This document shows, piece by piece, positions 1 to 22,085 of a DNA stretch of 56,022 nucleotides. The first letter of the stretch is position 1. Every line of letters begins with the position of its first letter. The DNA lies in assembly GCA_903911455.1 (NCBI GenBank), contig CAIWDQ010000383.1, positions 1 to 56,022 on the forward strand, in the 5' to 3' direction. The stretch is from an uncultured bacterium (lineage in GTDB: Bacteria > Bacteroidota > Bacteroidia > Bacteroidales > JACABE01). Under the pieces are notes generated by a model. The model had not been told where the DNA came from, ran no database searches, and saw nothing but the letters and a program-made list of their open reading frames with translations. Both the position numbers and the translations under genes were made by a program.

Positions 1-121
1 AATGTCATTACAAATATCGAAATGTCAATTAAATAAGCTACTTTTTCTCTAATGCTACGCATTAGAAAATAAATGCCATAAATGATTGATTATTCGTAAA
101 ATATAACTGAACTTTGTTCTA

Positions 122-664
122 TTGCGTAATTTGGGTTTAATAAGCATAACTTTAGTTTGGGTTGCTTTCTGGATTTATTTAGGAGTTGGGAGATTTCTTG
201 ACACACCTAAGCAAATATCAAAAGACAATGTGTTTAAAGAAAAAGAAATCAAACCTTCAGTTGAATTTATTAAGAAATTTAAAAAAGATAGTAGTAGACT
301 TCCTACAAATAGAGAATTTTATACATGGGAACGCTATTATTATAAAGATTATTCAAGTGACTTATCTCAAAAAGAAGATTCATTAATACCTGGATTAGGT
401 ATTCTTAAATATATTAGAAATAAATCTGAGATAGTAACTAATGAAAGTTATAAATTTAAAAAAGCTGATTGGAATAAAGATTTTGCAATAGGTGTTTGGA
501 GAGGAAGCTGGGAAGAGTATTATTTTTCTTGGTCTGATAGTTATGATACTAATAATTATTCTTGGTCAGATGGCTATGTTGGTTTATTCGTTGATATTTT
601 AATTGGATTAATCCCACTTTTGTTTTGGTTTATTTATTATAAAAGAAAAAGAAAAGCTATATAA
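122..664 (+). CDS. hypothetical membrane-anchored protein
   Basis: 180-aa ORF with a non-ATG (TTG) start in the track. N-terminal hydrophobic helix (LISITLVWVAFWIYLGV) and C-terminal helix (LFVDILIGLIPLLFWFIYY) followed by KRKRK. No family recognised. Confidence 0.4.
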   Translation: MRNLGLISITLVWVAFWIYLGVGRFLDTPKQISKDNVFKEKEIKPSVEFIKKFKKDSSRLPTNREFYTWERYYYKDYSSDLSQKEDSLIPGLGILKYIRNKSEIVTNESYKFKKADWNKDFAIGVWRGSWEEYYFSWSDSYDTNNYSWSDGYVGLFVDILIGLIPLLFWFIYYKRKRKAI

Positions 665-803
665 GTACTAATTCCACACCTTTCCCACTCTCTTTAAATT
701 CTTTTTTCATACTTATAGTTCATATGTTGATGTTTTTTGATAATTTTACCGCCTGAAATTTCAGAATACATTTTAATCTTAAGAATATAATAAATCACTA
801 GAT

Positions 804-2867
804 ATGATCACAGAACAATTAATAAACCCAAGAAGTATAGTAGTAATAGGTGCCTCAAATGATGTTGAGAAACCTGGCGGAAAAATATTAAAAAACCTAA
901 TTGATGGTAACTTCAAAGGTAATATATATGTATCCAATCCAAAAGAAGACGAAATACAAGGAGTAAAATCGTATCGTAATCCCGATGATCTTCCACAAGT
1001 TGACCTAGCTATTATTGCAATTGCAGCTAAATATATCCCCGATACTGTTGAATTGCTTACAACAAAAAAAGATACTAAAGCTTTTATTATTCTTTCAGCA
1101 GGTTTCAGCGAAGAAAGTAACGAAGGAAAGCTATTGGAAGATAAAGTTGTAGCTATTATCAATAAAGTAAACGGCTCGTTGATAGGACCTAATTGTGTTG
1201 GAATCCTTACACCTTCGCATCACAGTATTTTTACATTGCCTATTCCAAAACTGGAAGCTAAAGGCTGCGATTTTATATCAGGTTCTGGTGCTACTGCTTG
1301 TTTTATCATGGAAGCAGGTATTCCTAAAGGCTTAACTTTCGCCAATGTGTTCTCAGTTGGTAATTCAGCCCAGATGGGTGTTGAAGAAATACTGCAATAC
1401 ATGGACGAAACCTTTGATCCTGAAAAGAGTTCTAAGGTAAAACTTCTATATATTGAAACAATAAACAAACCTGAATTGCTATTAAAACATGCTTCTTCTT
1501 TAATTAAAAAAGGATGTAGAATAGCAGCAGTTAAAGCTGGCTCATCTGAAGAAGGTAGTCGTGCAGCATCTTCACATACAGGTGCTTTGGCTAGCTCGGA
1601 TGTAGCTGTTGACGCTCTTTTCCGCAAAGCAGGTATCGTTCGCTGTTATGGCAGAGAAGAGCTTATAAGTGTGGCTTCAGTATTTATGTATCCTGAATTA
1701 AAAGGCAAGAATATAGCGATAATTACGCACGCTGGTGGCCCTGCAGTTATGCTTACCGATGCACTCTCAAAAGGTGGTTTAAAGATACCTCATATTGAAA
1801 GCCCCAAAGCTAAAGAACTACTTGAACAGTTATTTGCAGGTTCTTCAGTTGCTAATCCTATTGATTTTCTTGCTACCGGTACTGCCCATCAACTAGGTAT
1901 TATTATTGATTATTGTGATAATTACTTTGATGAAATAGATGGAATAGTGGTTATTTTCGGTACTCCCGGTTTGTTTAAATTATATGATGTATATAATGTT
2001 CTTAATGAGAAGATGAAGACTGCCAAAAAACCTATATATCCTGTGCTTCCTTCTACGCTTACCGCGAAAGAAGAGGTTGAAGACTTTATCTCTAAAGGTT
2101 GGGTTAATTTTCCTGATGAAGTTACGCTGGGTAATGCGCTTTCAAAGGTATATAATACTAACAAACCCTTAACTACTCTTTATTGCAAAGACCATGTTGA
2201 CGTAGGATATATAAGAGCTATCATTGATAGTAACGAAGATGGTTATTTAAAACCGGAAGCTGTACAGGCATTGCTAGATGCAGCAGGTATTCCACGTGCC
2301 GGCGAGGCTGTAGTTGCTGATAAAGCAAGTGCAGTTGAAGCAGCTACCAAATTAGGTTTCCCTGTTGTAATGAAAGTGGTAGGACCTGTTCATAAATCTG
2401 ATGTAGGCGGTGTAGTATTAAATGTTAATGATGCTGATACTGTTAAAAAAGAGTTTGATAGGATGATTAAGATCAAAGATACTACGGCTATCCTTATTCA
2501 ACCTATGCTTAGCGGTACTCAGATATTTGTTGGGGCTAATTATGAAGATAAATTCGGACATCTTATTATGTGTGGCCTTGGTGGTATCTTTATTGAAGTG
2601 TTGAAAGATGTGAGTGCAGCCATAGCTCCTGTTGGAAAAGTAGAAGCTACACAAATGATTAAAAATCTAAAGAGTTATAAGATCATTCAGGGAGTTAGAG
2701 GACAGGAAGGAGTTAACGAAGAGATGTTTGCTGAAGTGATTATGAGTTTATCTAACCTGCTAATGGTTGCCCCTGAAATTAAAGAAATGGACATTAACCC
2801 GCTTCTAGGGAAGATGGATAAAGTTGTAGCCGTAGATGCACGTATTAGAATTGAGAAAAACAAATAA
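804..2867 (+). CDS. acetate--CoA ligase (ADP-forming) family protein
   Basis: 687 aa. N-terminal CoA-binding fold (IVVIGASND..PGGKILKNL), succinyl-CoA-synthetase-like middle part and C-terminal ATP-grasp (GFPVVMKVVGPVHKSDVGGVVLNV). This is the architecture of the ADP-forming acyl-CoA synthetase family. Confidence 0.85.
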   Translation: MITEQLINPRSIVVIGASNDVEKPGGKILKNLIDGNFKGNIYVSNPKEDEIQGVKSYRNPDDLPQVDLAIIAIAAKYIPDTVELLTTKKDTKAFIILSAGFSEESNEGKLLEDKVVAIINKVNGSLIGPNCVGILTPSHHSIFTLPIPKLEAKGCDFISGSGATACFIMEAGIPKGLTFANVFSVGNSAQMGVEEILQYMDETFDPEKSSKVKLLYIETINKPELLLKHASSLIKKGCRIAAVKAGSSEEGSRAASSHTGALASSDVAVDALFRKAGIVRCYGREELISVASVFMYPELKGKNIAIITHAGGPAVMLTDALSKGGLKIPHIESPKAKELLEQLFAGSSVANPIDFLATGTAHQLGIIIDYCDNYFDEIDGIVVIFGTPGLFKLYDVYNVLNEKMKTAKKPIYPVLPSTLTAKEEVEDFISKGWVNFPDEVTLGNALSKVYNTNKPLTTLYCKDHVDVGYIRAIIDSNEDGYLKPEAVQALLDAAGIPRAGEAVVADKASAVEAATKLGFPVVMKVVGPVHKSDVGGVVLNVNDADTVKKEFDRMIKIKDTTAILIQPMLSGTQIFVGANYEDKFGHLIMCGLGGIFIEVLKDVSAAIAPVGKVEATQMIKNLKSYKIIQGVRGQEGVNEEMFAEVIMSLSNLLMVAPEIKEMDINPLLGKMDKVVAVDARIRIEKNK

Positions 2868-2879
2868 AAGCACTTAATT

Positions 2880-3092
2880 ATGAAAACAACTATAGGAAGC
2901 AGAGTAAGAATAATTGCCCTATCCTTACTTATATTATCAATGATTATTATGATGTATAATGATCAGGTGAATATTAAATACTGGATAGCCATTACAATAA
3001 TAGTTATCTCACTTGGCGTGATAAATTATGATTATTTCATTCTTTATAAAAATAAAAAGAAAGACCAAACAAAGGATATTGAAAAGAAGTAA
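2880..3092 (+). CDS. small two-helix membrane protein, hypothetical
   Basis: 70-aa ORF 12 nt after the preceding stop, with two hydrophobic stretches and a lysine-rich tail. No family recognised. Confidence 0.35.
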   Translation: MKTTIGSRVRIIALSLLILSMIIMMYNDQVNIKYWIAITIIVISLGVINYDYFILYKNKKKDQTKDIEKK

Positions 3093-3110
3093 TAAACAAA
3101 TCAACAATAA

Positions 3111-3839
3111 ATGAAGAAAAACGACCTACTCTTTTTTACATTTGCAATCTTAGTATTGCTTATCTTTATACCATTACCTTTTTTAAGTTGTTTCCACAAA
3201 GGATTCTTATACAATCCTCAATACTGGGTGCTCACCAGCTTTATTAAGTTCGGATTACTTGCAACTATCGGCGAAGTAATTGGACTTAGAATAAAGACAG
3301 GTAAGTTTAATGCTCCTGGTTTTGGAATAGTACCAAGAGCTATCGTATGGGGTTTCTTAGGCATCACAATTAAGTTTGCCTTTGATATATTTGGTGGTGG
3401 AATACCTGCATTTCTTGAAAAGAGTTGTCAGGTTAGTGGTGTAAGTGATGCAATGAAATCAAAAGACATCTTTGATGCTATTGAAAAAGGATTAGGTGGC
3501 ACCCGTTTGTTGGCGGCTTTCTGTATAAGTGCAGCAATGAATATTATATATGCTCCTATTATGATGACTTTTCATAAGATTACCGACACTCATATTGTTG
3601 ATAATGGCGGTACTTTGAAAGGTTTTTTCAAGTGTATTAAAATGGGAGACATCTTAACAAGAATAAACTGGAACGTTCAATGGAATTTTGTGTTTAAAAA
3701 GACTATTCCATTCTTCTGGATTCCGGCTCATACCATTACATTCTTACTGCCTGTTGAATATAGGGTGGCATTTGCAGCAGTACTTGGTATTGCTTTAGGG
3801 ATTATTCTTGCAATTGCTTCAATTAAGGGGAAATCATAA
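3111..3839 (+). CDS. integral membrane protein, unknown function
   Basis: 242 aa with several predicted TM helices, tightly packed in the same-strand cluster. Confidence 0.6.
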   Translation: MKKNDLLFFTFAILVLLIFIPLPFLSCFHKGFLYNPQYWVLTSFIKFGLLATIGEVIGLRIKTGKFNAPGFGIVPRAIVWGFLGITIKFAFDIFGGGIPAFLEKSCQVSGVSDAMKSKDIFDAIEKGLGGTRLLAAFCISAAMNIIYAPIMMTFHKITDTHIVDNGGTLKGFFKCIKMGDILTRINWNVQWNFVFKKTIPFFWIPAHTITFLLPVEYRVAFAAVLGIALGIILAIASIKGKS

Positions 3840-3863
3840 TATCTTAATTAATCATATTATAAA

Positions 3864-5135
3864 ATGAATAGAAAAAATGTTTTATTCCTGCTTGTCTTTG
3901 CAGGGATCTTTAATTCTTTTGCTGCGATTGCTCAAAAGGACACTACTAATAGTGGCTGCATTAGTATAACAAAGATAATTCCACCAAGCGTTAAGTTCTC
4001 AGGCTTCGTTAACTCTGAAATATTCTACGATACCCGACAAACTACTGGAGGTAGAGAAACTCTTTTAATGCTTTATCCGGCTGCTAAATCTCCAGACATC
4101 CATGGTTTTGATTTAAACAGTAAAGGTAATTTCAATCAATTGGCAATGATGTCGCGACTTACTGCTAATATTACCGGCCCAGACGTTTTAAATGCAAAAA
4201 CAATTGGTGTAATAGAAGCTGATTTTACCGGTACTTCTGATGCTACCAACAATATTTTCAGATTGCGTCATGCTTATATCAAACTTACATGGAAATCTGA
4301 CGAACTGTTAATTGGTAACTACTGGACTCCATTTGATGTAGCAGAAATGATACCTGCGGTAATCTCTTTAAATACTGGTGCTCCATTTCATTCATTCTCA
4401 CGTAATCCGCAGGTTCGTTATGTTCATAATTTTAATAATCTTAAATTAATTGCGGTAGCTTTATCGCAAAGAGATTATGCAAGTAATGGCCCTCTTGGTG
4501 TTTCCTCTGTTTATATGAGAGATGCAATTGTGCCAGAGATGCATCTACAGTTGCAATATAATATAGGTGGACACTTATTTGGAGTTGGAGGCGAGTATAA
4601 ATGCATACAGCCACGTTTGGCTACTTATAAAAATATAGCTTCAGATGAGAAATTAGAATCTACTGCAATAATAGCTTTTGCAAAACTTAATTTCCCTAAC
4701 CTTGATATTAAACTTCAGGGGTCATATGGTGGTAATATTTCTGATCATACTATGATAGGTGGTTATATTGAATCATCTATTGATACTATAAGTGGAATTA
4801 CTAAATATGCTAATGCTAATTCATTGGATATATGGACAGATATCTCAACTAAATCAAAGAAGCTTAATGTTGGTTTGTTTGCAGGCTATTATAAGAATAT
4901 GGGATACTCATCTGATATAGCAACAGGAGGTAAGTTTTATGGTAATGTTAATAATATTGGTTATTTATATCGCATTGCCCCAAGACTTACTTATACAGCT
5001 GGTGCTGTAATGTTTGCTCTTGAACTGGAATATACTGCCGCTCAATATGGCACACCCGATATAAAAGGGAAAATGATAAATCCATACGAAATAGGTAATT
5101 TTAGAACACTTTTTGGTGCTTTTTATTTCTTTTAA
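3864..5135 (+). CDS. outer-membrane beta-barrel porin-like protein
   Basis: 423 aa. Signal peptide ending AAIAQ, alternating amphipathic strands rich in Y/G/N, C-terminal aromatic residue (..GAFYFF). Confidence 0.6.
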   Translation: MNRKNVLFLLVFAGIFNSFAAIAQKDTTNSGCISITKIIPPSVKFSGFVNSEIFYDTRQTTGGRETLLMLYPAAKSPDIHGFDLNSKGNFNQLAMMSRLTANITGPDVLNAKTIGVIEADFTGTSDATNNIFRLRHAYIKLTWKSDELLIGNYWTPFDVAEMIPAVISLNTGAPFHSFSRNPQVRYVHNFNNLKLIAVALSQRDYASNGPLGVSSVYMRDAIVPEMHLQLQYNIGGHLFGVGGEYKCIQPRLATYKNIASDEKLESTAIIAFAKLNFPNLDIKLQGSYGGNISDHTMIGGYIESSIDTISGITKYANANSLDIWTDISTKSKKLNVGLFAGYYKNMGYSSDIATGGKFYGNVNNIGYLYRIAPRLTYTAGAVMFALELEYTAAQYGTPDIKGKMINPYEIGNFRTLFGAFYFF

Positions 5136-5179
5136 TAAAGAATTTAAGATTTCATAAATGATATTATAATATGAAAAAG

Positions 5180-5209
5180 GCTGTCTTAAAACTGAGGCAG
5201 CTTTTTTTT
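5180..5209 (+). terminator. rho-independent terminator after the porin gene
   Basis: Stem GCTGTCTT / GAGGCAGC (with G-U pairs) followed by T8. Confidence 0.6.
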
Positions 5210-5352
5210 ATTTTCATTTTTTGCTGGTTTTAATCCTATACAAAAATACAAATAATTTTAGGCAATCTTAAAAGAAGGGTAAAATTTATTTTTTTATTTT
5301 AAGATTATTTGTAAATAACCTATTAGGGTTGAAGAATAGCTTTAAAGCTGAT

Positions 5353-5604
5353 ATTAATACCCTCCGAGCCTATTAAAAGTACCTAATAGCATCTTTTAAT
5401 ACCCTCGGAGCCTATTTGCCGACCTTAATTGGGTATTTTAATACCTTCTGAGCTACTTTTAATACCCTTAGAGCATATTAAAAGGACCTAAAAGCATCTT
5501 TTAATACCCTTGGAGTCTATTCGCCGACCCTATTTGGGTATTTTAATAACTGGCGAGGGTATTTTAATAGCAAGCGACCCTATTTTTGTACCCTATTATC
5601 AATT
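5353..5604. repeat. 21-bp phased degenerate tandem array A (12 units)
   Basis: Counted units all 21 nt, for example TTTAATACCCTCGGAGCCTAT and TTGCCGACCTTAATTGGGTAT. Units 1-4 recur as units 6-9 (105-bp higher-order period). Confidence 0.85.
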
Positions 5605-5730
5605 CGTTATTAAAAATATTAGTTTATTAATAAATTATAAGACATTTGTTAAATTTAAAAAATGGATTTAATGAACAACCAATAGTGGAGTAACAGGATT
5701 TATAAATGTAATACATTGGCTTTAAATGAA

Positions 5731-5755
5731 GAAAGCCTGCTAAATGCAGGCTTTC
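5731..5755 (-). terminator. hairpin GAAAGCCTGC-loop-GCAGGCTTTC, copy 1
   Basis: 10-bp stem directly 3' of the tRNA-like sequence on the minus strand. It is part of a ~72-bp direct repeat with 6106-6170. Confidence 0.5.
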
Positions 5756-5759
5756 TGTT

Positions 5760-5848
5760 GCTCACCCTTCAATCCCGAGAGCATTGCGATTCGGGATGAG
5801 ACCCTCTGATTAATTCCGCACGTGCGGTACTCTAACCAACTGGGCTAA
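5760..5848 (-). pseudogene. decayed tRNA-Asn copy with two palindromic insertions
   Basis: Aligns to the tRNA-Asn at 6160-6233 in the D arm, TTAATCAGAGGGTCTCA and the 3' acceptor. The 5' anticodon stem is replaced by the palindrome CCGCACGTGCGG and the T loop by TCCCGA..TCGGGA. The acceptor and D stems no longer pair. Confidence 0.7.
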
Positions 5849-6115
5849 TACTCCAGTTGGAATAAAATCAATGTTTATTAGTTGGAGAATAAGATTCCTG
5901 CTTTTTTGTTTCTTGATAAACTTTTCTATTTTATCAGCATCCCCTTTCTTTTCTGACACCTGAAATATAGCTTTTAATTCCCAAGGCTTGTATTTGCCGG
6001 TAAATTTATCAACTTCATTAGAATTATGTTGTCCTAACCTTTTCCAAGGGTCAGAAGAATGACCTAAATAATATTTATCAGTAGATAATGAATAGATAAT
6101 ATAAATGTAATGCAT
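5810..6115 (-). CDS. GIY-YIG nuclease family protein
   Basis: 101 aa. N-terminal IYIIYS..KYYLGHSSD..RL.QHN is the GIY-YIG signature. The last ~13 codons run into the tRNA-like sequence. Confidence 0.75.
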   Translation of the reverse strand: MHYIYIIYSLSTDKYYLGHSSDPWKRLGQHNSNEVDKFTGKYKPWELKAIFQVSEKKGDADKIEKFIKKQKSRNLILQLINIDFIPTGVLAQLVRVPHVRN

Positions 6116-6129
6116 TGGTTTTAAATGAA

Positions 6130-6155
6130 GAAAGCCTGCTATTTGCAGGCTTTCT
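6130..6155 (-). terminator. hairpin GAAAGCCTGC-loop-GCAGGCTTTC, copy 2 (tRNA-Asn terminator)
   Basis: 10-bp stem beginning 5 nt after the tRNA 3' end on the minus strand. Confidence 0.55.
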
Positions 6156-6159
6156 GTTG

Positions 6160-6233
6160 CTCCCCCTTCAGGACTTGAACCTGAGACCCTCTGATTAACA
6201 GTCAGATGCTCTAACCAACTGAGCTAAGGAGGA
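6160..6233 (-). tRNA. tRNA-Asn (anticodon GTT)
   Basis: The reverse complement folds as a cloverleaf: acceptor TCCTCCT/AGGGGGA, D arm GCTC-AGTTGGTTA-GAGC, anticodon stem TCTGA/TCAGA with loop CTGTTAA, T arm TCAGG-TTCAAGT-CCTGA, discriminator G. CCA is not encoded. Confidence 0.9.
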
Positions 6234-6255
6234 GTGTTTTTTAAATTTCAGGCTG

Positions 6256-6263
6256 CAAAATTA
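6256..6263 (-). promoter_or_regulatory. -7 box TAATTTTG upstream of tRNA-Asn
   Basis: Matches the Bacteroidota sigma-A -7 consensus TAnnTTTG, 22 nt upstream of the mature tRNA 5' end. Confidence 0.5.
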
Positions 6264-6285
6264 GTTAAAGTTTTAAAATAAACAA

Positions 6286-6293
6286 TACCTTTG
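6286..6293 (+). promoter_or_regulatory. -7 box TACCTTTG upstream of the PfkB kinase gene
   Basis: TAnnTTTG match 24 nt upstream of the ATG at 6318. Confidence 0.5.
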
Positions 6294-6317
6294 CAAAAAA
6301 TTTTATAAAAATATTTT

Positions 6318-7301
6318 ATGAGTAAAGTCTTAGGAATGGGTAATGCCCTGGTAGACATAATGACACGTCTTGAGTCAGATTTATTGCTAGATGAATTTAT
6401 GTTACCAAAAGGAAGTATGCAATTAGTAGACAGGAAAGCTGTAGAAAAAGTTCTTTCTGGTACAATTAGTTTGTTAAAGCAGCAATCTTCAGGTGGTTCA
6501 GCTGCAAATACCATACATGGTCTTGCTAATTTAGGTATTGAAACAGGTTTTATTGGTACAATCGGTGACGATGAATTTGGAAAATTCTTCCATGAAGATC
6601 TTATCAATAATAAAATTCAACCTAAATTATTTAAAGGTATTAATGAATCAGGTAGAGCTATTGCTCTAGTAAGCCCTGATTCTGAAAGAACTTTTGCTAC
6701 CTTTTTAGGTGCAGCGATTGAATTATCTGCTGATCACATCACTGACGATGTATTTGAAGGATATGAGTATTTTCATATTGAAGGTTATCTTGTACAAAAT
6801 CATGAATTGATTAGAAAGGCTATTGAGTTTGCAAAACAAAAGAATCTTAAAGTATCCTTAGATCTTGCAAGTTTTAATGTAGTGGAAGCTAATCTTGATT
6901 TCTTAAAAGATATTATTAAAAAACATGTTGATATTGTTTTTGCTAATGAAGAAGAAGCTAAAGCTTTTACTGGACTTTCTCCAATAGATGCCTTACATGA
7001 AATTGCTAAGCATTGCGAAATTGCTGTAGTTAAGATTGGTAAGAATGGTTCTTTAATTAAAAAAGGGGATACAGTTCATGAAGTTGGAGTTATTAAAGCT
7101 AACAGTATTGATACTACCGGGGCAGGTGATGTATATGCATCAGGTTTTATATATGGCTTAGTTAAAGGTCTTCCATTGAATAAATGTGGAGAGATTGGTG
7201 CTGTTCTTTCTGGGAAAGTAATTGAAGTTATTGGTGCCAAGATGGATGTTCCTACCTGGGACATAATTAGGGGAATGGTTTCTGACATCCAAAATACATA
7301 A
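6318..7301 (+). CDS. PfkB-family carbohydrate/nucleoside kinase (adenosine-kinase-like)
   Basis: 327 aa. N-terminal GNALVD, SGGSAANT, and the C-terminal PfkB signature DTTGAGDVYASGFIYG. Confidence 0.8.
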   Translation: MSKVLGMGNALVDIMTRLESDLLLDEFMLPKGSMQLVDRKAVEKVLSGTISLLKQQSSGGSAANTIHGLANLGIETGFIGTIGDDEFGKFFHEDLINNKIQPKLFKGINESGRAIALVSPDSERTFATFLGAAIELSADHITDDVFEGYEYFHIEGYLVQNHELIRKAIEFAKQKNLKVSLDLASFNVVEANLDFLKDIIKKHVDIVFANEEEAKAFTGLSPIDALHEIAKHCEIAVVKIGKNGSLIKKGDTVHEVGVIKANSIDTTGAGDVYASGFIYGLVKGLPLNKCGEIGAVLSGKVIEVIGAKMDVPTWDIIRGMVSDIQNT

Positions 7302-7410
7302 TGAAATTAAATAATTATTAAGTTTATTTATTATAAGGCTTTTACTGATAAACGGCAGAAATAATATCAAATAATATCACTTTCTATTTTTATTATTAAT
7401 CAGTTTTATA

Positions 7411-7418
7411 TATTTTTG
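7411..7418 (+). promoter_or_regulatory. -7 box TATTTTTG upstream of the EF-G paralog
   Basis: TAnnTTTG match 48 nt upstream of the ATG at 7467. Confidence 0.4.
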
Positions 7419-7466
7419 CCATCTCGATTTGAAATTAATAATTTTAATAAAAACAAATAGACTAAA

Positions 7467-9602
7467 ATGAAGGTATACCAAACAAATGAAATCAAAAATA
7501 TTGCGTTGGTTGGTGGTGCTAAGTCAGGGAAAACCACTTTAGCAGAAGCAATGTTATTTGAAGGAGGGCTGATTAACAGAAGAGGTTCTGTTGATGATAA
7601 AAACACAGCATCTGATTACAGAGCGATAGAAATTGAACGTCATAATTCAATTTCTTCTACTTTACTTTATTCAGAATTCGGCGGAAAGAAAATAAATATC
7701 ATTGATACTCCAGGGTTCGATGATTTTATCGGAGAAGTAGTTGCTGCTTTAAAAGTGGCTGATACCGCTGTTATGGTTATCAATACACCAAGTGGTATTG
7801 ATGTAGGAACTGATCTTGCATGGCGTTATGCCAATAACTATAAGAATTCAGTTGTTTTTGCAGTTAATCATCTGGAACATGAGAACTCTAATTTCGACGA
7901 AATTATTCGTCAGTTAAAACAGTCGTTCGGGAATGGTATTACTATTTGTCAATATCCTGTTAACCCTGGGCTTGGTTTCAATTCAGTGATTGACATCTTA
8001 AAGATGAAGATGTATAAGTTTCCTGAGAATGGTGGCAAACCTGAGATCTTAGATATTCCTGCTACTGAAATGGATAAAGCTGAAGATTTACATAATACTT
8101 TAGTTGAGAATGCTGCTGAAAATGATGAGTCATTAATGGAGGTTTTCTTCGAAACAGGAACTTTGTCAGAAGAACAACTTATTAAAGGTTTAAAAGCCGG
8201 TGTTACCAATAGAGGAATGTTTCCTGTTATGTGTATCAATAGCAAACACAATATGGGCGTTGCTCGTTTGATGGAATTCATTTGTGAAAATACTCCTTCT
8301 CCAAACGAAATACACAATACTAAGACTGTATCTGGCAAATTAATGACTTATAATACTTCTGATCCTACTTCTTTATTTATATTTAAAACAGGTATTGAAG
8401 AACATTTAGGTGAAGTTTCTTTCTTTAAGGTTTATTCTGGTGAATTAACTGAGGCTATGGATATGGTTAATGCTAGCAATAGTTCTAAAGAAAGAATAAC
8501 TCAGTTATTTGCTGTTGTTGGTAAGAATCGTGAGAAACTAACTAAAGTTGTGGCAGGAGATATAGCTGCAACTATTAAATTAAAATCGTGTACTACTAAC
8601 GATACTCTTAATGCAGGTAAGAATTCAGAAGATAAGATAGAACCTATCATCTTCCCTGATCCTAAATTCCGTACTGCTGTTAAAGCTAAAGTATCTACTG
8701 ATGATGAAAAGCTTGGTGCTTTATTAAATGAAATGCACAAAGTTGATCAGACTATCTTAATTGAGTATTCTAAAGAATTAAAACAAATTATCCTTAGCGG
8801 ACAAGGTGAATTGCATTTGAATATTGCTAAATGGCATATCGAAACGCTTCATAAGATAGAAATTGAGTACTTTGCTCCAAAGATTCCTTATCGCGAAACT
8901 ATTACTAAGAATGCTAAAGCTGTTTATCGTCACAAGAAACAATCTGGTGGTGCAGGACAGTTTGGTGAGGTTCATATGTTGATCCAGCCTTATACCGAAG
9001 GTATGGCTAATCAAACCGAGTTCCCTATCCGTGGTACTACCGAAGAAACTATGTCGTGGGGTGGTAAACTTGTTTATAACAACTGTATAGTTGGTGGTGC
9101 AATTGATGCACGTTTCATGCCTGCTATCCTTAAAGGTATCATGGAGAAAATGGAAGTTGGACCTTTGACAGGTTCTTATGCCCGTGATATCGTTGTTAAT
9201 GTTTATGATGGTAAGATGCACCCTGTTGATTCAAACGAATTAGCTTTTAAATTAGCAGGTCGTCAGGCATTCAGAGAAGCATTTAAGAATGCAGGTCCTA
9301 AGATCCTTGAACCTATTTATGATGTTGAAGTTGTTGTTCCGGCCGAAAGAATGGGTGATGTAATGACCGATCTTCAAGGAAGAAGAGCTGTTGTGATGGG
9401 TATGGATAGCGAAGGTAACAAACAGATCATTAAAGCCAGAGTTCCTTTGGCAGAAATGAATCGTTATTCTACTGCTTTAAGTTCGCTTACTAGTGGAAGA
9501 GCTACTTATGGTTTAAGATTTGCAGAATACCAACAGGTACCTACCGATGTTCAGACTGCTTTACTAAAGGCTTACGAAGAACAGGAAAAAGAAGAAGAAT
9601 AA
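7467..9602 (+). CDS. elongation factor G paralog (EF-G2-like) with degenerate GTPase motifs
   Basis: 711 aa with EF-G domain order I-V. G1 reads GGAKSGKT (canonical AHIDAGKT), switch II reads DTPGF (canonical DTPGH) and G4 reads NHLE (canonical NKxD). Confidence 0.85.
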   Translation: MKVYQTNEIKNIALVGGAKSGKTTLAEAMLFEGGLINRRGSVDDKNTASDYRAIEIERHNSISSTLLYSEFGGKKINIIDTPGFDDFIGEVVAALKVADTAVMVINTPSGIDVGTDLAWRYANNYKNSVVFAVNHLEHENSNFDEIIRQLKQSFGNGITICQYPVNPGLGFNSVIDILKMKMYKFPENGGKPEILDIPATEMDKAEDLHNTLVENAAENDESLMEVFFETGTLSEEQLIKGLKAGVTNRGMFPVMCINSKHNMGVARLMEFICENTPSPNEIHNTKTVSGKLMTYNTSDPTSLFIFKTGIEEHLGEVSFFKVYSGELTEAMDMVNASNSSKERITQLFAVVGKNREKLTKVVAGDIAATIKLKSCTTNDTLNAGKNSEDKIEPIIFPDPKFRTAVKAKVSTDDEKLGALLNEMHKVDQTILIEYSKELKQIILSGQGELHLNIAKWHIETLHKIEIEYFAPKIPYRETITKNAKAVYRHKKQSGGAGQFGEVHMLIQPYTEGMANQTEFPIRGTTEETMSWGGKLVYNNCIVGGAIDARFMPAILKGIMEKMEVGPLTGSYARDIVVNVYDGKMHPVDSNELAFKLAGRQAFREAFKNAGPKILEPIYDVEVVVPAERMGDVMTDLQGRRAVVMGMDSEGNKQIIKARVPLAEMNRYSTALSSLTSGRATYGLRFAEYQQVPTDVQTALLKAYEEQEKEEE

Positions 9603-16557: not shown

Positions 16558-17757
16558 ATGGCTTATTTAAAAAACATATTATTCTTTTTCCTTCTATTCT
16601 ATGTATTAAACATACAAGGGCAGCATTATATTGGAAATAACCTGGTTCAGAATCCTTCATTTGAACAATATGACACCTGTCCAACTAGTACAGGACAACT
16701 TTATTTATCAAAACACTGGTGGGGACTTAGTACTGATTATTATAACGCTTGTGCATTACCTAATGGGATGTCTGTTCCTTTAAATTTTTGTGGATTTCAA
16801 TATGCTCATACAGGAGTTGCTTATGCAGGATTTATTAATTATTTCCATACACCATCTTTTCCAAATTTTGATACATATATGGAAGCAATTAAAAATGAAC
16901 TTAAAGACAGTCTAATTAAAAATAAACATTATTGTGTTAACTATTATATATCTTTAACAGAATATACATATAACTATTCCAGTCTTTTTAATAGTTATTT
17001 TATTTATGATTCGATTGGTGCAATGTTTTCTACAAATAGAGTACAAGATTCTATTTCAACAATTTTATGTGATTCATGTCCTAAATTTTCAAGAAGTATT
17101 GCAAATACTGATACTATTAATTGGCTTAAAATATCAGGTTACGTTATAGCTAAAGGAGGTGAAAAATATTTAACTATTGGTAAATTTAATATTATGGATT
17201 GGCAAAACTATAATAATTCTTATAGTCAATTTTATGTTTATATAGACGATGTTTCAGTTTGCGAATGCAGTTTTGAGTTCAGCTTGGGTAAAGATACTAC
17301 TTTATGTGAAGGCGAAACATTAATACTAAACCCTAATATACCTAATGCAATATATACATGGCAAGATAGTAGCCATGCAACTACTTATACTGTTACAAAA
17401 CCGGGTACTTATTGGGTAAGAGCATACTTTCCGGAGTATGACATTACAACCTCTTCTTCTATTAACATAACTTACGATGGGGACTGCCTAAAAATACCAA
17501 ACATCTTTACTCCTAATAATGATAATATAAATGATTACTTTGTAATACAAAACTCAGAAGGTTGGGATATAGATTTACAGGTTTATGATAGATGGGGTGT
17601 AATAGTTTACAAAGATACTAATTATAAAAATAATTGGGATGGTAAATGCAAAGGCAAAGATTTAGCAGATGGAACTTACTATTATATTATTAAAGCTACC
17701 AACCAGCTAAGTGGGTTTGAGAAACAATATCATGGGAGTGTGATGATATTGAGATAG
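16558..17757 (+). CDS. T9SS type B sorting domain (gliding-motility C-terminal domain) protein
   Basis: 399 aa. The N-terminal domain is paralogous to that of 12332.. (NLVQNPSFEQYDTCP..YAGF..YVYIDDVSV). C-terminus IPNIFTPNNDNINDYF..DRWG..DGTYYYI matches the type B / CHU_C sorting domain. Confidence 0.8.
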   Translation: MAYLKNILFFFLLFYVLNIQGQHYIGNNLVQNPSFEQYDTCPTSTGQLYLSKHWWGLSTDYYNACALPNGMSVPLNFCGFQYAHTGVAYAGFINYFHTPSFPNFDTYMEAIKNELKDSLIKNKHYCVNYYISLTEYTYNYSSLFNSYFIYDSIGAMFSTNRVQDSISTILCDSCPKFSRSIANTDTINWLKISGYVIAKGGEKYLTIGKFNIMDWQNYNNSYSQFYVYIDDVSVCECSFEFSLGKDTTLCEGETLILNPNIPNAIYTWQDSSHATTYTVTKPGTYWVRAYFPEYDITTSSSINITYDGDCLKIPNIFTPNNDNINDYFVIQNSEGWDIDLQVYDRWGVIVYKDTNYKNNWDGKCKGKDLADGTYYYIIKATNQLSGFEKQYHGSVMILR

Positions 17758-17791
17758 AGAGATAAAGACTGGGAGAATTAAGAATTAAAAA

Positions 17792-18477
17792 GTCGAGTGG
17801 GCAAGGGCATTTCAGCCCAAGCCCCTCACAGAACCGTACGTGAACCTCTCGATTCATACGGCTCTTCTAATAAGACAATACATTAAAATGCTCTTCCCTG
17901 TAACAGTTGGCAAAATGTATATCTTACTAGCTAAGCCCTTCGCTCCATCTCCATTACAGAAACTTCATCACTACTACGACTTAGTCCGCAACTGTGTACT
18001 GCATTGGTAGTATAAGTCTCACTGGTTCTCAGCTTGTACTTTTCCCTTTATCTGTCAGCGAATCCTTGGTCGGTAGCTTTAATGGCAGACTAACATCAGT
18101 ACACAATACTCTCCTGTTCCATATAAAAGCCCAAATAACGTTCATGCCTCCTTTACATCGGTTGCCGCATAACCAGTAAATCAGGTTTCCGTTATGCTCT
18201 TTAAGCCCTCTCTTAACTAGGACGTTTTGACAACAAGTACTTAATCACAACATGTCATCAGTGGTTCACTTGCGTTCATCACCGTTATTCATACCTGATG
18301 GATTATTCCACCTTTTCCTTGACCGTTCAATACCTTAACTTTTGGCTACAGCACCGCAAGGCGGTTTGCAATATCTGCCTGCACAGCTATTGCGAAGGCT
18401 CATCTCTTTTCAAAGACCCCTTCATCTTTTATACAGCATGTATAAAGAACTATTCGCTCTTTTCCTTCAGGACACAC
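17792..18477 (-). mobile_element. ORF-less group II intron (~686 nt)
   Basis: Minus strand: 5' GUGUG at 18477. Domain V at 17831-17864 reads GAGCCGUAUGAAUCGAGAGGUUCACGUACGGUUC. Domain VI has a bulged A (GAGGGGC..GCCC-A-CUC) and the 3' end is ..GAC at 17792. There is no minus-strand ORF of 60 aa or more inside. Confidence 0.75.
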
Positions 18478-18498
18478 TTAAGAATTAAGAAAAAAGAA

Positions 18499-18530
18499 AG
18501 AGCCATTATCAAACAAATAATAACGGCTCT
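18499..18530 (-). terminator. terminator-like hairpin just upstream of the intron insertion site
   Basis: Minus strand: AGAGCCGTTAT-loop-ATAATGGCTCT followed by TTCTTTTTTCTTAATTCTTAA and then the intron 5' end. Confidence 0.55.
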
Positions 18531-18547
18531 TTATATTAACCCCACCC

Positions 18548-18588
18548 CTGCCTAACGGCAGGCAGGTAACCTCCCCTAATAGGGGAGG
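18548..18588. repeat. two short GC-rich palindromes
   Basis: CTGCC-TAAC-GGCAG (18548-18561) and CCTCCCC-TAATA-GGGGAGG (18570-18588). Confidence 0.6.
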
Positions 18589-18652
18589 AATTTGAGTTAT
18601 AATATTATTAATTCTTAATTGTCTTTAAACTTTAGGCATTTCAAACTCCAAA

Positions 18653-18681
18653 CTTTAGGCACTATTGCCTATTGCCTAAAG
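18653..18681 (-). terminator. hairpin CTTTAGGCA..TGCCTAAAG downstream of the RND permease stop
   Basis: 9-bp stem. It overlaps the CTATTGC heptamer run (18661-18695) that abuts the stop codon. Confidence 0.45.
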
Positions 18682-18692
18682 CCTATTGCCTA

Positions 18693-21600
18693 TTATGCCT
18701 TTAGTAATGCGCGTGCTATCTTGTTTGATTTATTTCTTTTCAATCTTACCTTCATTGTATAAGCAATTAAATACATTGCAGGTACAAAGATTAAAGTTAA
18801 GAAGGTTGCAAAACTCAAACCAAAGATGATAGTCCATGCTAGTGCACCAAAGAAGGCAACATTATCACCACCAAAATGTATGTGTGGATTTAAATTTGTG
18901 AATAATGATATGAAATCAATATTTAAACCTACAGCTAAAGGTATCAAACCTAATATAGTTGCAGCAGCAGTTAATATTACAGGAGTAATCCTGGTTTTAC
19001 CTGCCTGTACAATGGCTTCTCTTGTTTTAAGACCTCTTTCTTTTAATACATCCGTAAATTCAACCAACAGAATACCATTACGAACCACAATACCTGCCAG
19101 TGCAACTACTCCCATACCAGTCATAATAAAGGAGAAAGTCATGTGGAAAGCAATAAATCCTAACAATACCCCAATGATACTAAAGAATACTTCGCTGAAG
19201 ATAATAATTGGTTTACTAATTGAATTGAACTGTGTGATAAGGATAAACATTACTAAGAACATAGCAAGCAACATCGCCTTTCCCATAAAAGCAGCAGTAT
19301 CTTTTTGATCGTCCTGTTCACCTGTAAAGGCAATGTCAACACCTTCGGGTTTGTTAAACTTAGGAAGATTGTTTTTAAGTTTTGTAACAATTTCGTTGGC
19401 ATTATACTCAGATAATACATTTGACGAAAGTGTAATTACCTTTTTTAGATTCTTACGTTTGATGCCACCATAAGTATTCTGATAACTTATCTTAGCAATT
19501 GAAGATAAAGGAATCTGACGCAACTGTCCTGAATTCATATCACGATAAGTTATCTTAAGATTCATAACTCTATCAATATTCTTACGCTGACTTTCTTCGT
19601 AACGTATCTGAATAGGATATTGGTCTTCGCCTTCTCTAAACTTAGAAGATTCTTTACCAAAGATTGCATATCTTATTTCCATACCAATCTGAGCTGTAGA
19701 AATGCCTTCGTGATTAGCTCTTTCTCTGTCGATATTAACAATAAGTTCAGGTTTGTTATTATCAAAATCTGATTTTAATTGTTCTATACCTTCCACTTTT
19801 AAAGAATCAATAAAATCTTTTAAACTAGTAGATGTTGATATTAACTTATCAAGATTATCACCACTTATTTCTATATTGATAGGCTTACCTGTAGGAGGGC
19901 CGTTTCTATTTTGGTCTACAGTAATTTCGGCACCCGAAATACCCTTAACAACATTTCTCATCTTATCAAGATAAGGCATAGTAGCTTCTCCATGACGCTT
20001 GGCAGTTTCAACGAAAGCAACCGTAACTTTACCGAGATGCGATGCTGAAGTTGTAGTATTAAATCTATCATCTGAAGCTCCTACAGCAACATTCGAAAGT
20101 ACAGATTCAACAATATCGTTTGAATCGCCGATAACTGTGTAAATTCTGTCTTCAACCATACGGGTAATCGAATCAGTAACTTTAATATCAGTACCAACAG
20201 GCATCTTAATATAAGCATAAATGTAGTTAGGATCGTTAGCAGGGAAAAGAACTGCCTTAGGTTTGGCAATATTCATTACAATCATAGTAAAGATAAACAA
20301 TGCAACTAAACCACCAAGAATATAATAAGGACGACGTTTAGCAACGAAGTATCTTAAGGCATTTTCGTATTTACGCATCATTGCTGGGATGAAATGATGT
20401 TGAAAATGTAATAATATATGTCTTCCCCATAACTGATGACCTACAAAAGATATAGCTATAAAGATTGCGAAGTTAGCAAATCCAGGTAAAGATAATAAGT
20501 GTAATAGGATACCTAGTCCAAGGAATATACCCCCGATAGTAAAGATTTTCTTTTTACTGAAATTGATTTCTTCGTCATCATGATGTTTCATGAAAGAAAC
20601 AGCAAACACAGGATTAAAGATATAAGCTACTATAAGAGAAGCAAACAATGTAATGATAAGCGTTACCGGAATAAAGTACATAAACTTACCGATAATACCC
20701 GGCCAAAAAGCAAGAGGGAAGAAAGGTGCAAGTGTGGTAAGAGTTCCAGAGAGTATGGGGACAAATACTTCGCCCGCCGCATACTTCGCCGACATCTTAA
20801 TATCAAGTATCCCCTTATTCTGATTAAATACCCTATGCGTATTCTCAATAACTACAATGGCATCATCAACAACAATTCCCAATGCAAATATGAAGGCAAA
20901 CATAACCAGCATATTCATCGTAAAACCAATTTCAGGCATCACAATATAAGCAAGCGCCATTGATAAAGGAACCGACAGTCCCACAAACAATGCATTCGTC
21001 AGTCCCATAAAGAACATGAGGATAATGGTTACAAGAATAAACCCAATAATAATAGTATTATTAAGATCAAACAATGTATTTCTTGTAAACACCGACTGAT
21101 CACCAGTAATAGTAAGTTTAAGTTTAGAAGGTAATTTGTCCTTCTTCATCTTTTCCATAGTAGCTTTTATCTTATCAGAAGCTTCTAATAAGTTTTCGCC
21201 ACTCTTCTTAATAATATTTAATGTGATAACATTCTTACGTTCCAGAGTTGCATAACTTTCTCTTTCTTTAAATCCATCTCTTATTTCAGCAATATCTTTA
21301 AGATAAACTAAAGCACCACTACCCGATTTAAGGATGATGTTTTTAAGAGTTTCCATTTCTTTAAACTCACCAACAACCCTAATACTTCTTTCAGTACCCT
21401 GCATCTTAATAGAACCACCTGAAATAGTAAGGTTCTCGGAAGCTATAGCACGATCAATATCACTAAGCGAAAGACTTGCAGCTTGCATCTTGTACATATC
21501 CAGATTTACCTGAATCTCTCTATCAAGAGCACCAACAATATCCACACGAGTAATTTCCTTAAGTCCTTCAATAGCATCTTTCATGTCGTCAGCATACTTC

Positions 21601-22085
21601 TTAAGTTTATCCAACTCATAATCGCCCGACATGTTAATATACATAATAGGTATTTCAGAGAAATCAATCTCCATTACAGAAGGTTCTTTTTGTAAGTCGG
21701 TAGGCAAATCATTCTTAGATTTATCTACAGCATCCTTCACCTTTTGTTTAGCAAACTGAACATCTACATCAGTATTAAACTCAACAACAATCATTGAGAA
21801 GTCTTGGATAGAATTACTGGTAACTTTCTTTACACCATTAATTGACTTAATATTCTTCTCAATAGGACGAGTAACAAGATTCTCCATATCTGCTGGAGAC
21901 GTTCCCGGATAAATGGTATTAACCATCATCGTTGGGATAACCAGTTCGGGGAATTGCTCTTTAGGTATGGTATTATAATTGATAATACCAAAGATAGAGA
22001 TGATAACCATAAGTACATAAATACTTGTTTTGTTATCAATAGCCCAACTGGTTCCGAAAAATTCTTTAAACTTTACGTTCTTCAT
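18693..22085 (-). CDS. efflux RND transporter permease subunit (AcrB/HAE-like)
   Basis: 1130 aa. 12-TM RND topology with two large periplasmic loops, plus an extra hydrophobic insert around residues 500-600. Confidence 0.9.
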   Translation of the reverse strand: MKNVKFKEFFGTSWAIDNKTSIYVLMVIISIFGIINYNTIPKEQFPELVIPTMMVNTIYPGTSPADMENLVTRPIEKNIKSINGVKKVTSNSIQDFSMIVVEFNTDVDVQFAKQKVKDAVDKSKNDLPTDLQKEPSVMEIDFSEIPIMYINMSGDYELDKLKKYADDMKDAIEGLKEITRVDIVGALDREIQVNLDMYKMQAASLSLSDIDRAIASENLTISGGSIKMQGTERSIRVVGEFKEMETLKNIILKSGSGALVYLKDIAEIRDGFKERESYATLERKNVITLNIIKKSGENLLEASDKIKATMEKMKKDKLPSKLKLTITGDQSVFTRNTLFDLNNTIIIGFILVTIILMFFMGLTNALFVGLSVPLSMALAYIVMPEIGFTMNMLVMFAFIFALGIVVDDAIVVIENTHRVFNQNKGILDIKMSAKYAAGEVFVPILSGTLTTLAPFFPLAFWPGIIGKFMYFIPVTLIITLFASLIVAYIFNPVFAVSFMKHHDDEEINFSKKKIFTIGGIFLGLGILLHLLSLPGFANFAIFIAISFVGHQLWGRHILLHFQHHFIPAMMRKYENALRYFVAKRRPYYILGGLVALFIFTMIVMNIAKPKAVLFPANDPNYIYAYIKMPVGTDIKVTDSITRMVEDRIYTVIGDSNDIVESVLSNVAVGASDDRFNTTTSASHLGKVTVAFVETAKRHGEATMPYLDKMRNVVKGISGAEITVDQNRNGPPTGKPINIEISGDNLDKLISTSTSLKDFIDSLKVEGIEQLKSDFDNNKPELIVNIDRERANHEGISTAQIGMEIRYAIFGKESSKFREGEDQYPIQIRYEESQRKNIDRVMNLKITYRDMNSGQLRQIPLSSIAKISYQNTYGGIKRKNLKKVITLSSNVLSEYNANEIVTKLKNNLPKFNKPEGVDIAFTGEQDDQKDTAAFMGKAMLLAMFLVMFILITQFNSISKPIIIFSEVFFSIIGVLLGFIAFHMTFSFIMTGMGVVALAGIVVRNGILLVEFTDVLKERGLKTREAIVQAGKTRITPVILTAAATILGLIPLAVGLNIDFISLFTNLNPHIHFGGDNVAFFGALAWTIIFGLSFATFLTLIFVPAMYLIAYTMKVRLKRNKSNKIARALLKA

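Follow-up and report, generated by a model that had tools for sequence, protein, structure and literature searches.

RmInt1 of Sinorhizobium meliloti is a group II intron of bacterial class D/IIB3 that has no D/En domains and carries the C-terminal protein motif LX3AX3PXLF[V/A]HW; for introns of this type, the protein is presumed to bind primarily at the DIVa region, RmInt1 protein can work in trans, and class D introns that are related complement one another (PMC4615759). Engineered forms of RmInt1 and RmInt2 from which the open reading frame (ORF) has been deleted splice and move with a protein that is provided from elsewhere than the intron. A natural parallel is the TeI3 family of Thermosynechococcus elongatus, in which the domain IV ORF is deleted, DIVa is retained, exon-binding sites (EBS) and intron-binding sites (IBS) match well, most copies are intergenic, and the ORF-less introns are mobilised by the proteins of sister introns (Mohr et al. 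2010, PMC2882425). The literature already describes group II introns that lack an ORF, mobilisation in trans, and insertion between genes or behind terminators (PMC4424553, PMC2882425, PMC8919778, PMC12350094), and a 2015 review regards ORF-less introns as rare and short-lived in bacteria (PMC4424553). Here, we describe an element of this kind in contig CAIWDQ010000383.1 (assembly GCA_903911455.1) of an uncultured member of the Bacteroidales, the whole 56,022-nt stretch being referred to as the window. The element spans 17792–18477 on the minus strand and is an ORF-less group II intron that likely constitutes a non-autonomous derivative of a mobile, RmInt1-like, IIB-type intron.

Read on the minus strand, the 686-nt element opens with GUGUG (18477–18473) and closes with ...CCCACUCGAC, the terminal GAC finishing at 17792, in keeping with GUGYG and AY boundaries. 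The same ends, 5′ GUGUG(U/C)C... and 3′ ...CUACUCGAC, are common to its relatives, which were collected by BLAST against plasmids, a genome-collection scan and a metagenome scan, and are labelled L001 and so forth. At the curated gathering thresholds of Rfam, the domain I model RF01999 (group-II-D1D4-2) matches 18408–18293 on the minus strand with 84 bits (gathering 36, E 1.7e-15), whereas RF00029, which models domains V/VI, matches 17866–17792 on the same strand with 64.3 bits (gathering 40, E 2e-10); a laxer scan of 17000–19500 adds solely a plastid domain V model on the bases already assigned to domain V. All six domains are mapped to the minus strand. Domain I (18112–18472, intron 6–366) holds the RF01999 match as well as RNAalifold helices 1–16 with compensatory changes. 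Domain II (17988–18111, intron 367–490), delimited by alignment, fold and relatives, carries a ∼40-nt lineage-specific extension that is otherwise found only in L145, L254 and L255. Domain III (17931–17984, intron 494–547), placed by the collection scan and the fold, contains the near-invariant GAAGUUUCUGUAAUGGAGAUGGAGCGAAGG, and comparison with ORF-containing relatives reduces domain IV to a 64-nt stub (17867–17930, intron 548–611) made up of a long basal stem, a CAAC-hairpin and a purine-rich stretch (CAACUGUUACAGGGAAGAG). Domain V (17830–17865), supported by sequence, Rfam and fold, has a 34-nt core at 17864–17831, GAGCCGUAUGAAUCGAGAGGUUCACGUACGGUUC, with the AGC triad, a 2-nt AC bulge and a GAGA loop, and domain VI (17795–17827; sequence and Rfam) reads GAGGGGC...GCCC-A-CUC, with the bulged branch-point A at 17798, 6 nt ahead of the 3′ end. 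No minus-strand ORF of 60 aa or more is found within the intron. The first-pass annotation of this DNA had proposed the domain V with its triad, bulge and loop, the bulged adenosine 6 nt before ...GAC, the 686-nt extent from GUGUG at 18477 and the absence of an intron-encoded reverse transcriptase (RT), and each of these holds; the RF01999 match extends the covariance-model evidence beyond domain V.

The ribozyme is conserved as a fold as well as in its motifs. Twelve full-length ORF-less introns, window copy included, were aligned (alignment A1), and the RNAalifold consensus comprises 146 pairs in 25 helices that make up six domains. Pairing is observed in 97% of paired cells, as compared with 79% in column shuffles and ∼41% when partners are slid by 1–3 columns, and 90 of the 146 pairs exhibit double-sided changes as opposed to 54 in shuffles and 20–26 with slid partners. 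Such covariation, together with the Rfam matches in domain I and in domains V/VI, supports the assignment of a complete group II intron. The window copy retains 135 of the 146 pairs (92.5%), with most failures arising from another register in domain IV, compensated changes or alignment effects, and it departs from 8 of 179 family-invariant positions, mostly in compensated pairs (e.g. A90-U105 and U229-A320). All catalytic and boundary motifs are undamaged, and as judged from its sequence the element looks to be a complete and intact ribozyme. Several relatives are fragments, among them a 5′-truncated copy on Tenacibaculum plasmids (L001) and three loci with aberrant 3′ ends (L024, L037 and L046), which is the type of observation that would favour a remnant here too, be it the 3′ part of a larger intron or twintron or a rearranged portion of one; with all six domains present, contiguous, in order, and bounded by GUGUG and ...GAC, the domain map refutes that explanation and leaves it a negligible probability.

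The flanks of the intron indicate how its site would be selected. The 5′ exon ends in the tandem heptamers TTCTTAA TTCTTAA (18478–18491, minus strand), which by sequence and EBS pairing represent IBS2 and IBS1, and the heptamer run is continued in the 3′ exon as TTTTTAA TTCTTAA TTCTCCC (17771–17791, minus strand), where the U at 17791 would be IBS3; the reconstructed insertion site without the intron reads CTTTTTTCTTAATTCTTAA^TTTTTAATTC. EBS1, UUAAGAG (18210–18216, minus strand; intron 262–268), sits in a 9-nt hairpin loop, AGUUAAGAG, and pairs with exon positions −7 to −1 (UUCUUAA) via 7 bp, six of them Watson-Crick and one G-U. This placement draws on homology and covariation: the homologous loop forms 6–7 contiguous pairs with its own 5′ exon in 11 of the 12 ORF-less introns, and when every loop is set against every exon as a control, introns average 6.75 pairs with their own exon and 5.3 with the exons of others. 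EBS2, AUUAAG (18240–18245, minus strand; intron 233–238), lies in an internal loop of the domain I d-stem 17 nt further upstream and pairs with exon positions −12 to −7 (CUUAAU); it is placed by loop homology, the homologous loop forming 5–7 bp with the upstream exon in L002, L012, L061 and L092. In L145 both EBS loops differ from those of the window intron and, in pairings read by eye, match the exon of L145 itself, the EBS2 being AUAACG with CGUUGU. The candidate EBS3 is the A at 18153 (minus strand; intron 325), opposite the first 3′ exon base U; its alignment column, 403, is Watson-Crick to exon position +1 in 11 of 12 introns, although column 219 scores equally well, such that this assignment is tentative. 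The first-pass annotation had already noted AATTAAG heptamers on both flanks and had offered UUAAGA (plus-strand 18211–18216) as a weak EBS1; the heptamers are confirmed, with the 5′ pair now read as IBS2 and IBS1, and the EBS1 proves correct and stronger than was claimed.

Ribozymes of class C (IIC) are much smaller, lack EBS2, and recognise a DNA stem-loop together with a very short IBS1. Like them, the window intron lies outside genes and shortly after a terminator hairpin: the intrinsic terminator of an efflux operon of the resistance-nodulation-division (RND) type lies at 18497–18532 on the minus strand as a 15-bp stem with a 6-nt loop followed by CTTTTTTCTT (z = −5.65 on folding of exon positions −70 to −1), and the 5′ splice site is 19 nt past its stem. 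As insertion behind terminators has been recorded for class C and for a few protein types close to it (PMC8919778), and as L084 and L091 likewise lie ∼20–25 nt after strong hairpins, a class C-like intron with the terminator stem-loop as its DNA target would at first sight be an attractive interpretation, and a resemblance of this kind had been suggested by the first-pass annotation alongside its placement of the intron behind terminator hairpins downstream of an RND operon. The placement stands; the resemblance is not supported. Folding of the 70 nt upstream reveals a strong hairpin in only 3–4 of 14 ORF-less relatives (the window, L084, L091 and perhaps L092) and no significant hairpin in 10 of the 14, which rules out terminator targeting as a property of the family. 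The 686-nt ribozyme with its full, large IIB-type domain I, its EBS2 and its 12–13 bp of exon pairing is likewise unlike class C, the Rfam domain I model and the protein relatives are shared with RmInt1, and in a PDB sequence search the protein of a relative gives ∼155 bits with IIC RTs as opposed to 137 and 123 with IIA/IIB, scores that overall span 123–156 bits, do not discriminate between classes and bring it no closer to IIC. Overall, the data contradict a class C-like intron, which we consider very improbable. Because the EBS loops match their exons in 11 of 12 introns whereas upstream hairpins are few, the target is read through ∼12 bp of base pairing with EBS2 and EBS1, similar to RmInt1, rather than through the hairpin of the terminator. 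A location behind a terminator does not by itself suffice to diagnose class C-type targeting, and may simply be one of the places that tolerate insertion.

The ribozyme is of IIB type and groups with RmInt1. Among the collected loci, L133 was identified as RmInt1 from its protein (MTSE..., 419 aa) and from its location within the transposase gene of ISRm2011-2, and it matches RF01999 with 113.7 bits; both the window intron and RmInt1 cover the full model, which may, however, not be specific to class D. Likeness to the Sinorhizobium introns RmInt1, RmInt2 and Sr.md.I1 extends to an IIB-type RNA with EBS1, EBS2 and EBS3 (a candidate EBS3 in the window intron) and, for the relatives of the window intron, to proteins of ∼415 aa that have RT and X domains only and end in ...PxLFxxW. 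The nearest ORF-containing relatives encode proteins of 414–416 aa with RVT_1 and GIIM only (i.e. RT and X domains without D/En). In the Bacteroidota relative L106, the protein is a genuine group II RT/maturase (TIGR04416, 414 bits) and shares 47% identity with that of RmInt1 across 96% of its length; for most group II RTs on plasmids the figure is 30–36%. The class D C-terminal motif is matched in part, by FPSLFYHW in L106 and LNPTLFALW in L145 (PxLF[Y/A][H/L]W). On these grounds the lineage may be termed class D-like, that is, RmInt1-like and belonging to bacterial class D/IIB3 or close to it. Class B was dropped as a candidate, being said to be confined to Firmicutes (PMC4424553). The window intron differs from the RmInt1 group in its host, which belongs to the Bacteroidota and is not a rhizobium, in its target, an intergenic heptamer repeat behind a terminator in place of an insertion sequence element, and in having lost its ORF naturally, whereas the delta-ORF forms of RmInt1 and RmInt2 were engineered.

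The relatives show what has been lost from domain IV. A scan of the metagenomes with the exact domain V of the window recovered L145 (Ga0182019_10058945), a 1955-nt intron that is 84.5% identical in domains I–III and 97% in domains V–VI, and that has window-type insertions in a domain I hairpin and in domain II; such lineage-specific insertions are otherwise shared only with L254 and L255. The domain IV of L145 measures ∼1.38 kb and encodes an intact 414-aa RVT_1+GIIM protein, as compared with the 64-nt stub of the window intron. This protein has a large family of relatives, 70–89% identical, on short metagenomic contigs, and two such contigs carry the L254 and L255 introns, which are 85–86% identical to the window intron (the first 26 bases of L255 are those of the window). 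Among the matches listed, these three are the nearest relatives: introns of 1.9–2.0 kb with a 414–416 aa RT/maturase in domain IV, 84–86% identical to the window intron in domains I–III and 92–100% in domains V–VI, yet distinct from it in their intact protein and in an EBS1 and EBS2 of their own for other target sites. The window stretch CAACUGUUACAGGGAAGAG corresponds to the CAAC-hairpin and the Shine-Dalgarno-like stretch ahead of the start codon in ORF-containing relatives, and the hairpin and a purine-rich stretch recur at the homologous position in the other ORF-less relatives of A1 that were inspected. By analogy with RmInt1-type introns, this DIVa-like element is a putative protein-binding site. 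The window intron thus derives from a full-length intron similar to L145, with loss of the ORF relative to its close relatives.

Loss of the ORF is not confined to the window. BLAST against plasmids identified a complete 658-nt ORF-less copy on a Methylomonas plasmid, in addition to the truncated Tenacibaculum copy, and a scan of the genome collection with the near-invariant domain III motif returned at least 120 loci in many phyla. Among the matches listed, 23 loci are ORF-less, with just 69–105 nt between domains III and V, and in 27 the two domains are ∼1.3 kb apart, mostly with an RT gene of ∼415 aa in between; ORF-less introns therefore account for 23 of 50 typed loci in genomes, and for 11 in the metagenomes versus at least 29 that contain the ORF, although both scans were seeded with motifs and these shares are not unbiased frequencies. 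In a neighbour-joining tree of the shared ribozyme parts, ORF-less and ORF-containing introns are intermixed, which rules out a monophyletic ORF-less lineage and implies that the ORF was lost several times independently within the clade, across phyla. ORF-less relatives have moved recently in other genomes, as near-identical ORF-less copies occupy different sites within one Methylococcales metagenome-assembled genome (MAG; L012 and L108) and within one Hanamia MAG (L035 and L077).

A number of minor observations were made on these relatives. The site of L077 matches its EBS1 just partly, which suggests ectopic retrotransposition, and L123 of the same Hanamia MAG has a domain III–V gap of 2.7 kb without a long ORF and may be a full-length copy that was disrupted. 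Numerous contigs start or stop within or beside these introns (L013 of Maribacter sp. 4G9, L025, L116, L083, and L127/L128); the scaffold name of L013 gives a coverage of 856, and L127 and L128 break off 116 nt past the orthologue of the pump gene. Contigs that break at a given element are the usual sign of multi-copy repeats, and this hints at high copy numbers in some genomes. On JGI contig Ga0209181_10017170 (L181, positions 1–8707), a single strand carries five domain V/VI matches in 8.7 kb, with ORFs of the other strand between them and a repeated segment of 300–450 nt after each; no Rfam D1-D4 match reaches the gathering score, two of the copies have a palindromic insertion in the domain V loop, and the whole looks like an array of short ORF-less intron-like repeats.

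We propose that the window intron originated from an ancestor similar to L145, L254 or L255 with an RT/maturase of ∼415 aa in domain IV, and that deletion of the RT gene would have left the 64-nt domain IV in which the CAAC-hairpin and purine-rich, DIVa-like element is retained. The intron RNA would then have entered its present site by reverse splicing into DNA, guided by EBS2 (AUUAAG) and EBS1 (UUAAGAG), and probably by EBS3 (A), to the two TTCTTAA heptamers and the next T within the T-rich tail directly past the terminator of the RND operon. Since the proteins of the relatives have no endonuclease domain, insertion would be expected to occur at replication forks, as in RmInt1. Having no RT of its own, the intron would depend for splicing help and mobility on the RT/maturase of a related full-length intron elsewhere in the cell, acting in trans; by analogy with the described systems, such a protein would be needed for efficient splicing, for reverse splicing and for cDNA synthesis. 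The situation resembles that of the TeI3 family in the deleted ORF, the retention of DIVa (here a DIVa-like element), the good EBS/IBS matches and the intergenic location, but TeI3 introns are chloroplast-like (CL/IIB1) and reflect one deletion event in one genome, whereas the clade of the window intron is RmInt1-like and has lost its ORF repeatedly.

Transcription of the intron would occur only by read-through of the pump operon terminator. As no gene is interrupted, and as splicing would join non-coding exons of a read-through transcript, the intron is expected to be neutral to its host. This bears on the alternative that it is a protein-independent self-splicing ribozyme, similar to C.te.I1 of Clostridium tetani, that is kept as a splicing-only element. 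The core is intact, and robust self-splicing is on record for one ORF-less intron of bacteria whose host genome lacks a related RT (PMC4424553); however, with no gene interrupted there is nothing for splicing to rescue, and the DIVa-like element and clean EBS/IBS matches fit retromobility better. We regard this alternative as unlikely.

Several observations weigh against a mobile, RmInt1-derived intron at this locus, and some of them would equally suit a dead fossil, namely an intron that has lost its RT, has no helper in the genome, and persists as neutral sequence behind the terminator. No RT gene is found in the 56-kb window by a six-frame [YF]xDD scan combined with the ORF list, the three matches not being RTs, and blastn finds no second intron copy in the window. 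No near-identical copy of the window intron is present among the matches listed, the closest being ∼85% identical, so that recent mobility of this particular copy is unproven. The window copy has the lowest intact-pair fraction of the alignment (135/146). An empty target site was not recovered: on contigs whose pump is 91–94% identical, the DNA that follows is unrelated or the contig stops 116 nt past the gene, and an identical neighbour protein is found solely on contigs that also contain the intron. ENA assemblies whose accessions belong to one series with those of the window contig (ERZ27313607 and ERZ1426842) do contain close relatives that encode an RT, which suggests a shared habitat and nothing more, and does not place an RT in the same genome. 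The class D label, in turn, draws on the proteins of relatives and on a shared RF01999 match that is possibly not class-specific, with the C-terminal motif matched in part. According to the 2015 review, derivatives that cannot move are believed to be short-lived in bacteria (PMC4424553), which counts in favour of a fossil. Set against the fossil are the intact catalytic and boundary motifs, the undecayed EBS2/EBS1-IBS complementarity of 12–13 bp, the prevalence of compensated pairs among the deviations at invariant positions, the retained DIVa-like hairpin, and the clear movement of ORF-less relatives in other genomes. A dead fossil is in our estimate possible, on the doubtful side of even, and this estimate overlaps with the high probability given to a non-autonomous RmInt1-like derivative, as a fossil differs from the latter just in its present-day state. 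Provided that the intron is such a derivative, a currently mobilisable element and a young fossil appear about equally probable. The alternatives set out by the first-pass annotation, an ORF-less intron in need of a protein in trans or a fossil, are thus supported by Rfam, covariation and EBS1, and its concern that the element might be a 3′ fragment without a plausible domain I–IV fold is answered by the contiguous, 146-pair, six-domain structure.

For the locus itself the intron is of little consequence, as it interrupts no gene and is a recognisable selfish RNA element. It does provide a clean example of a natural delta-ORF derivative of an RmInt1-like lineage in the Bacteroidota for which full-length relatives are identified. 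It is mildly interesting that the ORF-less shares among the matches listed (23 of 50, and 11 versus at least 29) contrast with the view of ORF-less introns as rare. Tentatively, and with somewhat more doubt than confidence, the window intron may belong to a large and so far overlooked population of class D-derived ‘mini-introns’ that would arise repeatedly by clean RT loss, keep DIVa, retarget via EBS1/EBS2, and spread across phyla as parasites of full-length introns. Repeated loss of the ORF and the movement of ORF-less copies bear on the origin of non-autonomous retroelements from group II introns, and such a derivation is a model for the origin of spliceosomal introns that are served by a common splicing machinery. 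The compact ribozyme and an RT of the L145 type could moreover be a candidate retargetable ‘targetron’ pair for the Bacteroidota.

The genomic context is that of a Bacteroidota genome with a GC content of ∼33% in which flanking proteins have type IX secretion system (T9SS) sorting domains. These domains led to the rejection of a cyanobacterial origin, which the low GC and the heptamer repeats had at first suggested; the nearest homologues of the RND pump belong to Bacteroidota and Bacteroidales MAGs. The upstream host gene is an AcrB-type RND efflux permease (18693–22085, minus strand, i.e. that of the intron; Pfam ACR_tran, E 3e-178), the last of an operon in which the periplasmic adaptor (MFP) and outer-membrane factor (OEP) genes lie upstream of the pump, and homologous loci suggest that a TetR-family gene would precede the operon. 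The intron starts 215 nt downstream of this operon, and on its other side a convergent CHU_C/T9SS gene has its stop codon (17757) 34 nt from the intron. On the minus strand, 18545–18700, straddling and following the pump stop codon, contains the short direct repeats GGCAATAGG (three copies) and GCCTAAAGTTT (two copies), after which two GC-rich hairpins (CCTCCCCTATTAGGGGAGG and CCTGCCTGCCGTTAGGCAGGGG) stand between the pump stop codon and the true terminator. The terminator hairpin at 18497–18532 is flanked on both sides by T/A-rich runs and may formerly have terminated both of the convergent genes. With the intron in place, 686 nt have come between the CHU_C stop codon and this hairpin, and CHU_C transcripts would consequently pass antisense through the intron. 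Two further RNA features are unrelated to the intron or distant from it: the full-length intron in Maribellus sediminis (L106) has near it a SAM-I/IV riboswitch (L106 960–1055, 57.6 bits), and the window carries at 6160–6233 on the minus strand a tRNA gene (Rfam, 69.5 bits) whose anticodon loop, CUGUUAA (GUU), is as expected for tRNA-Asn.

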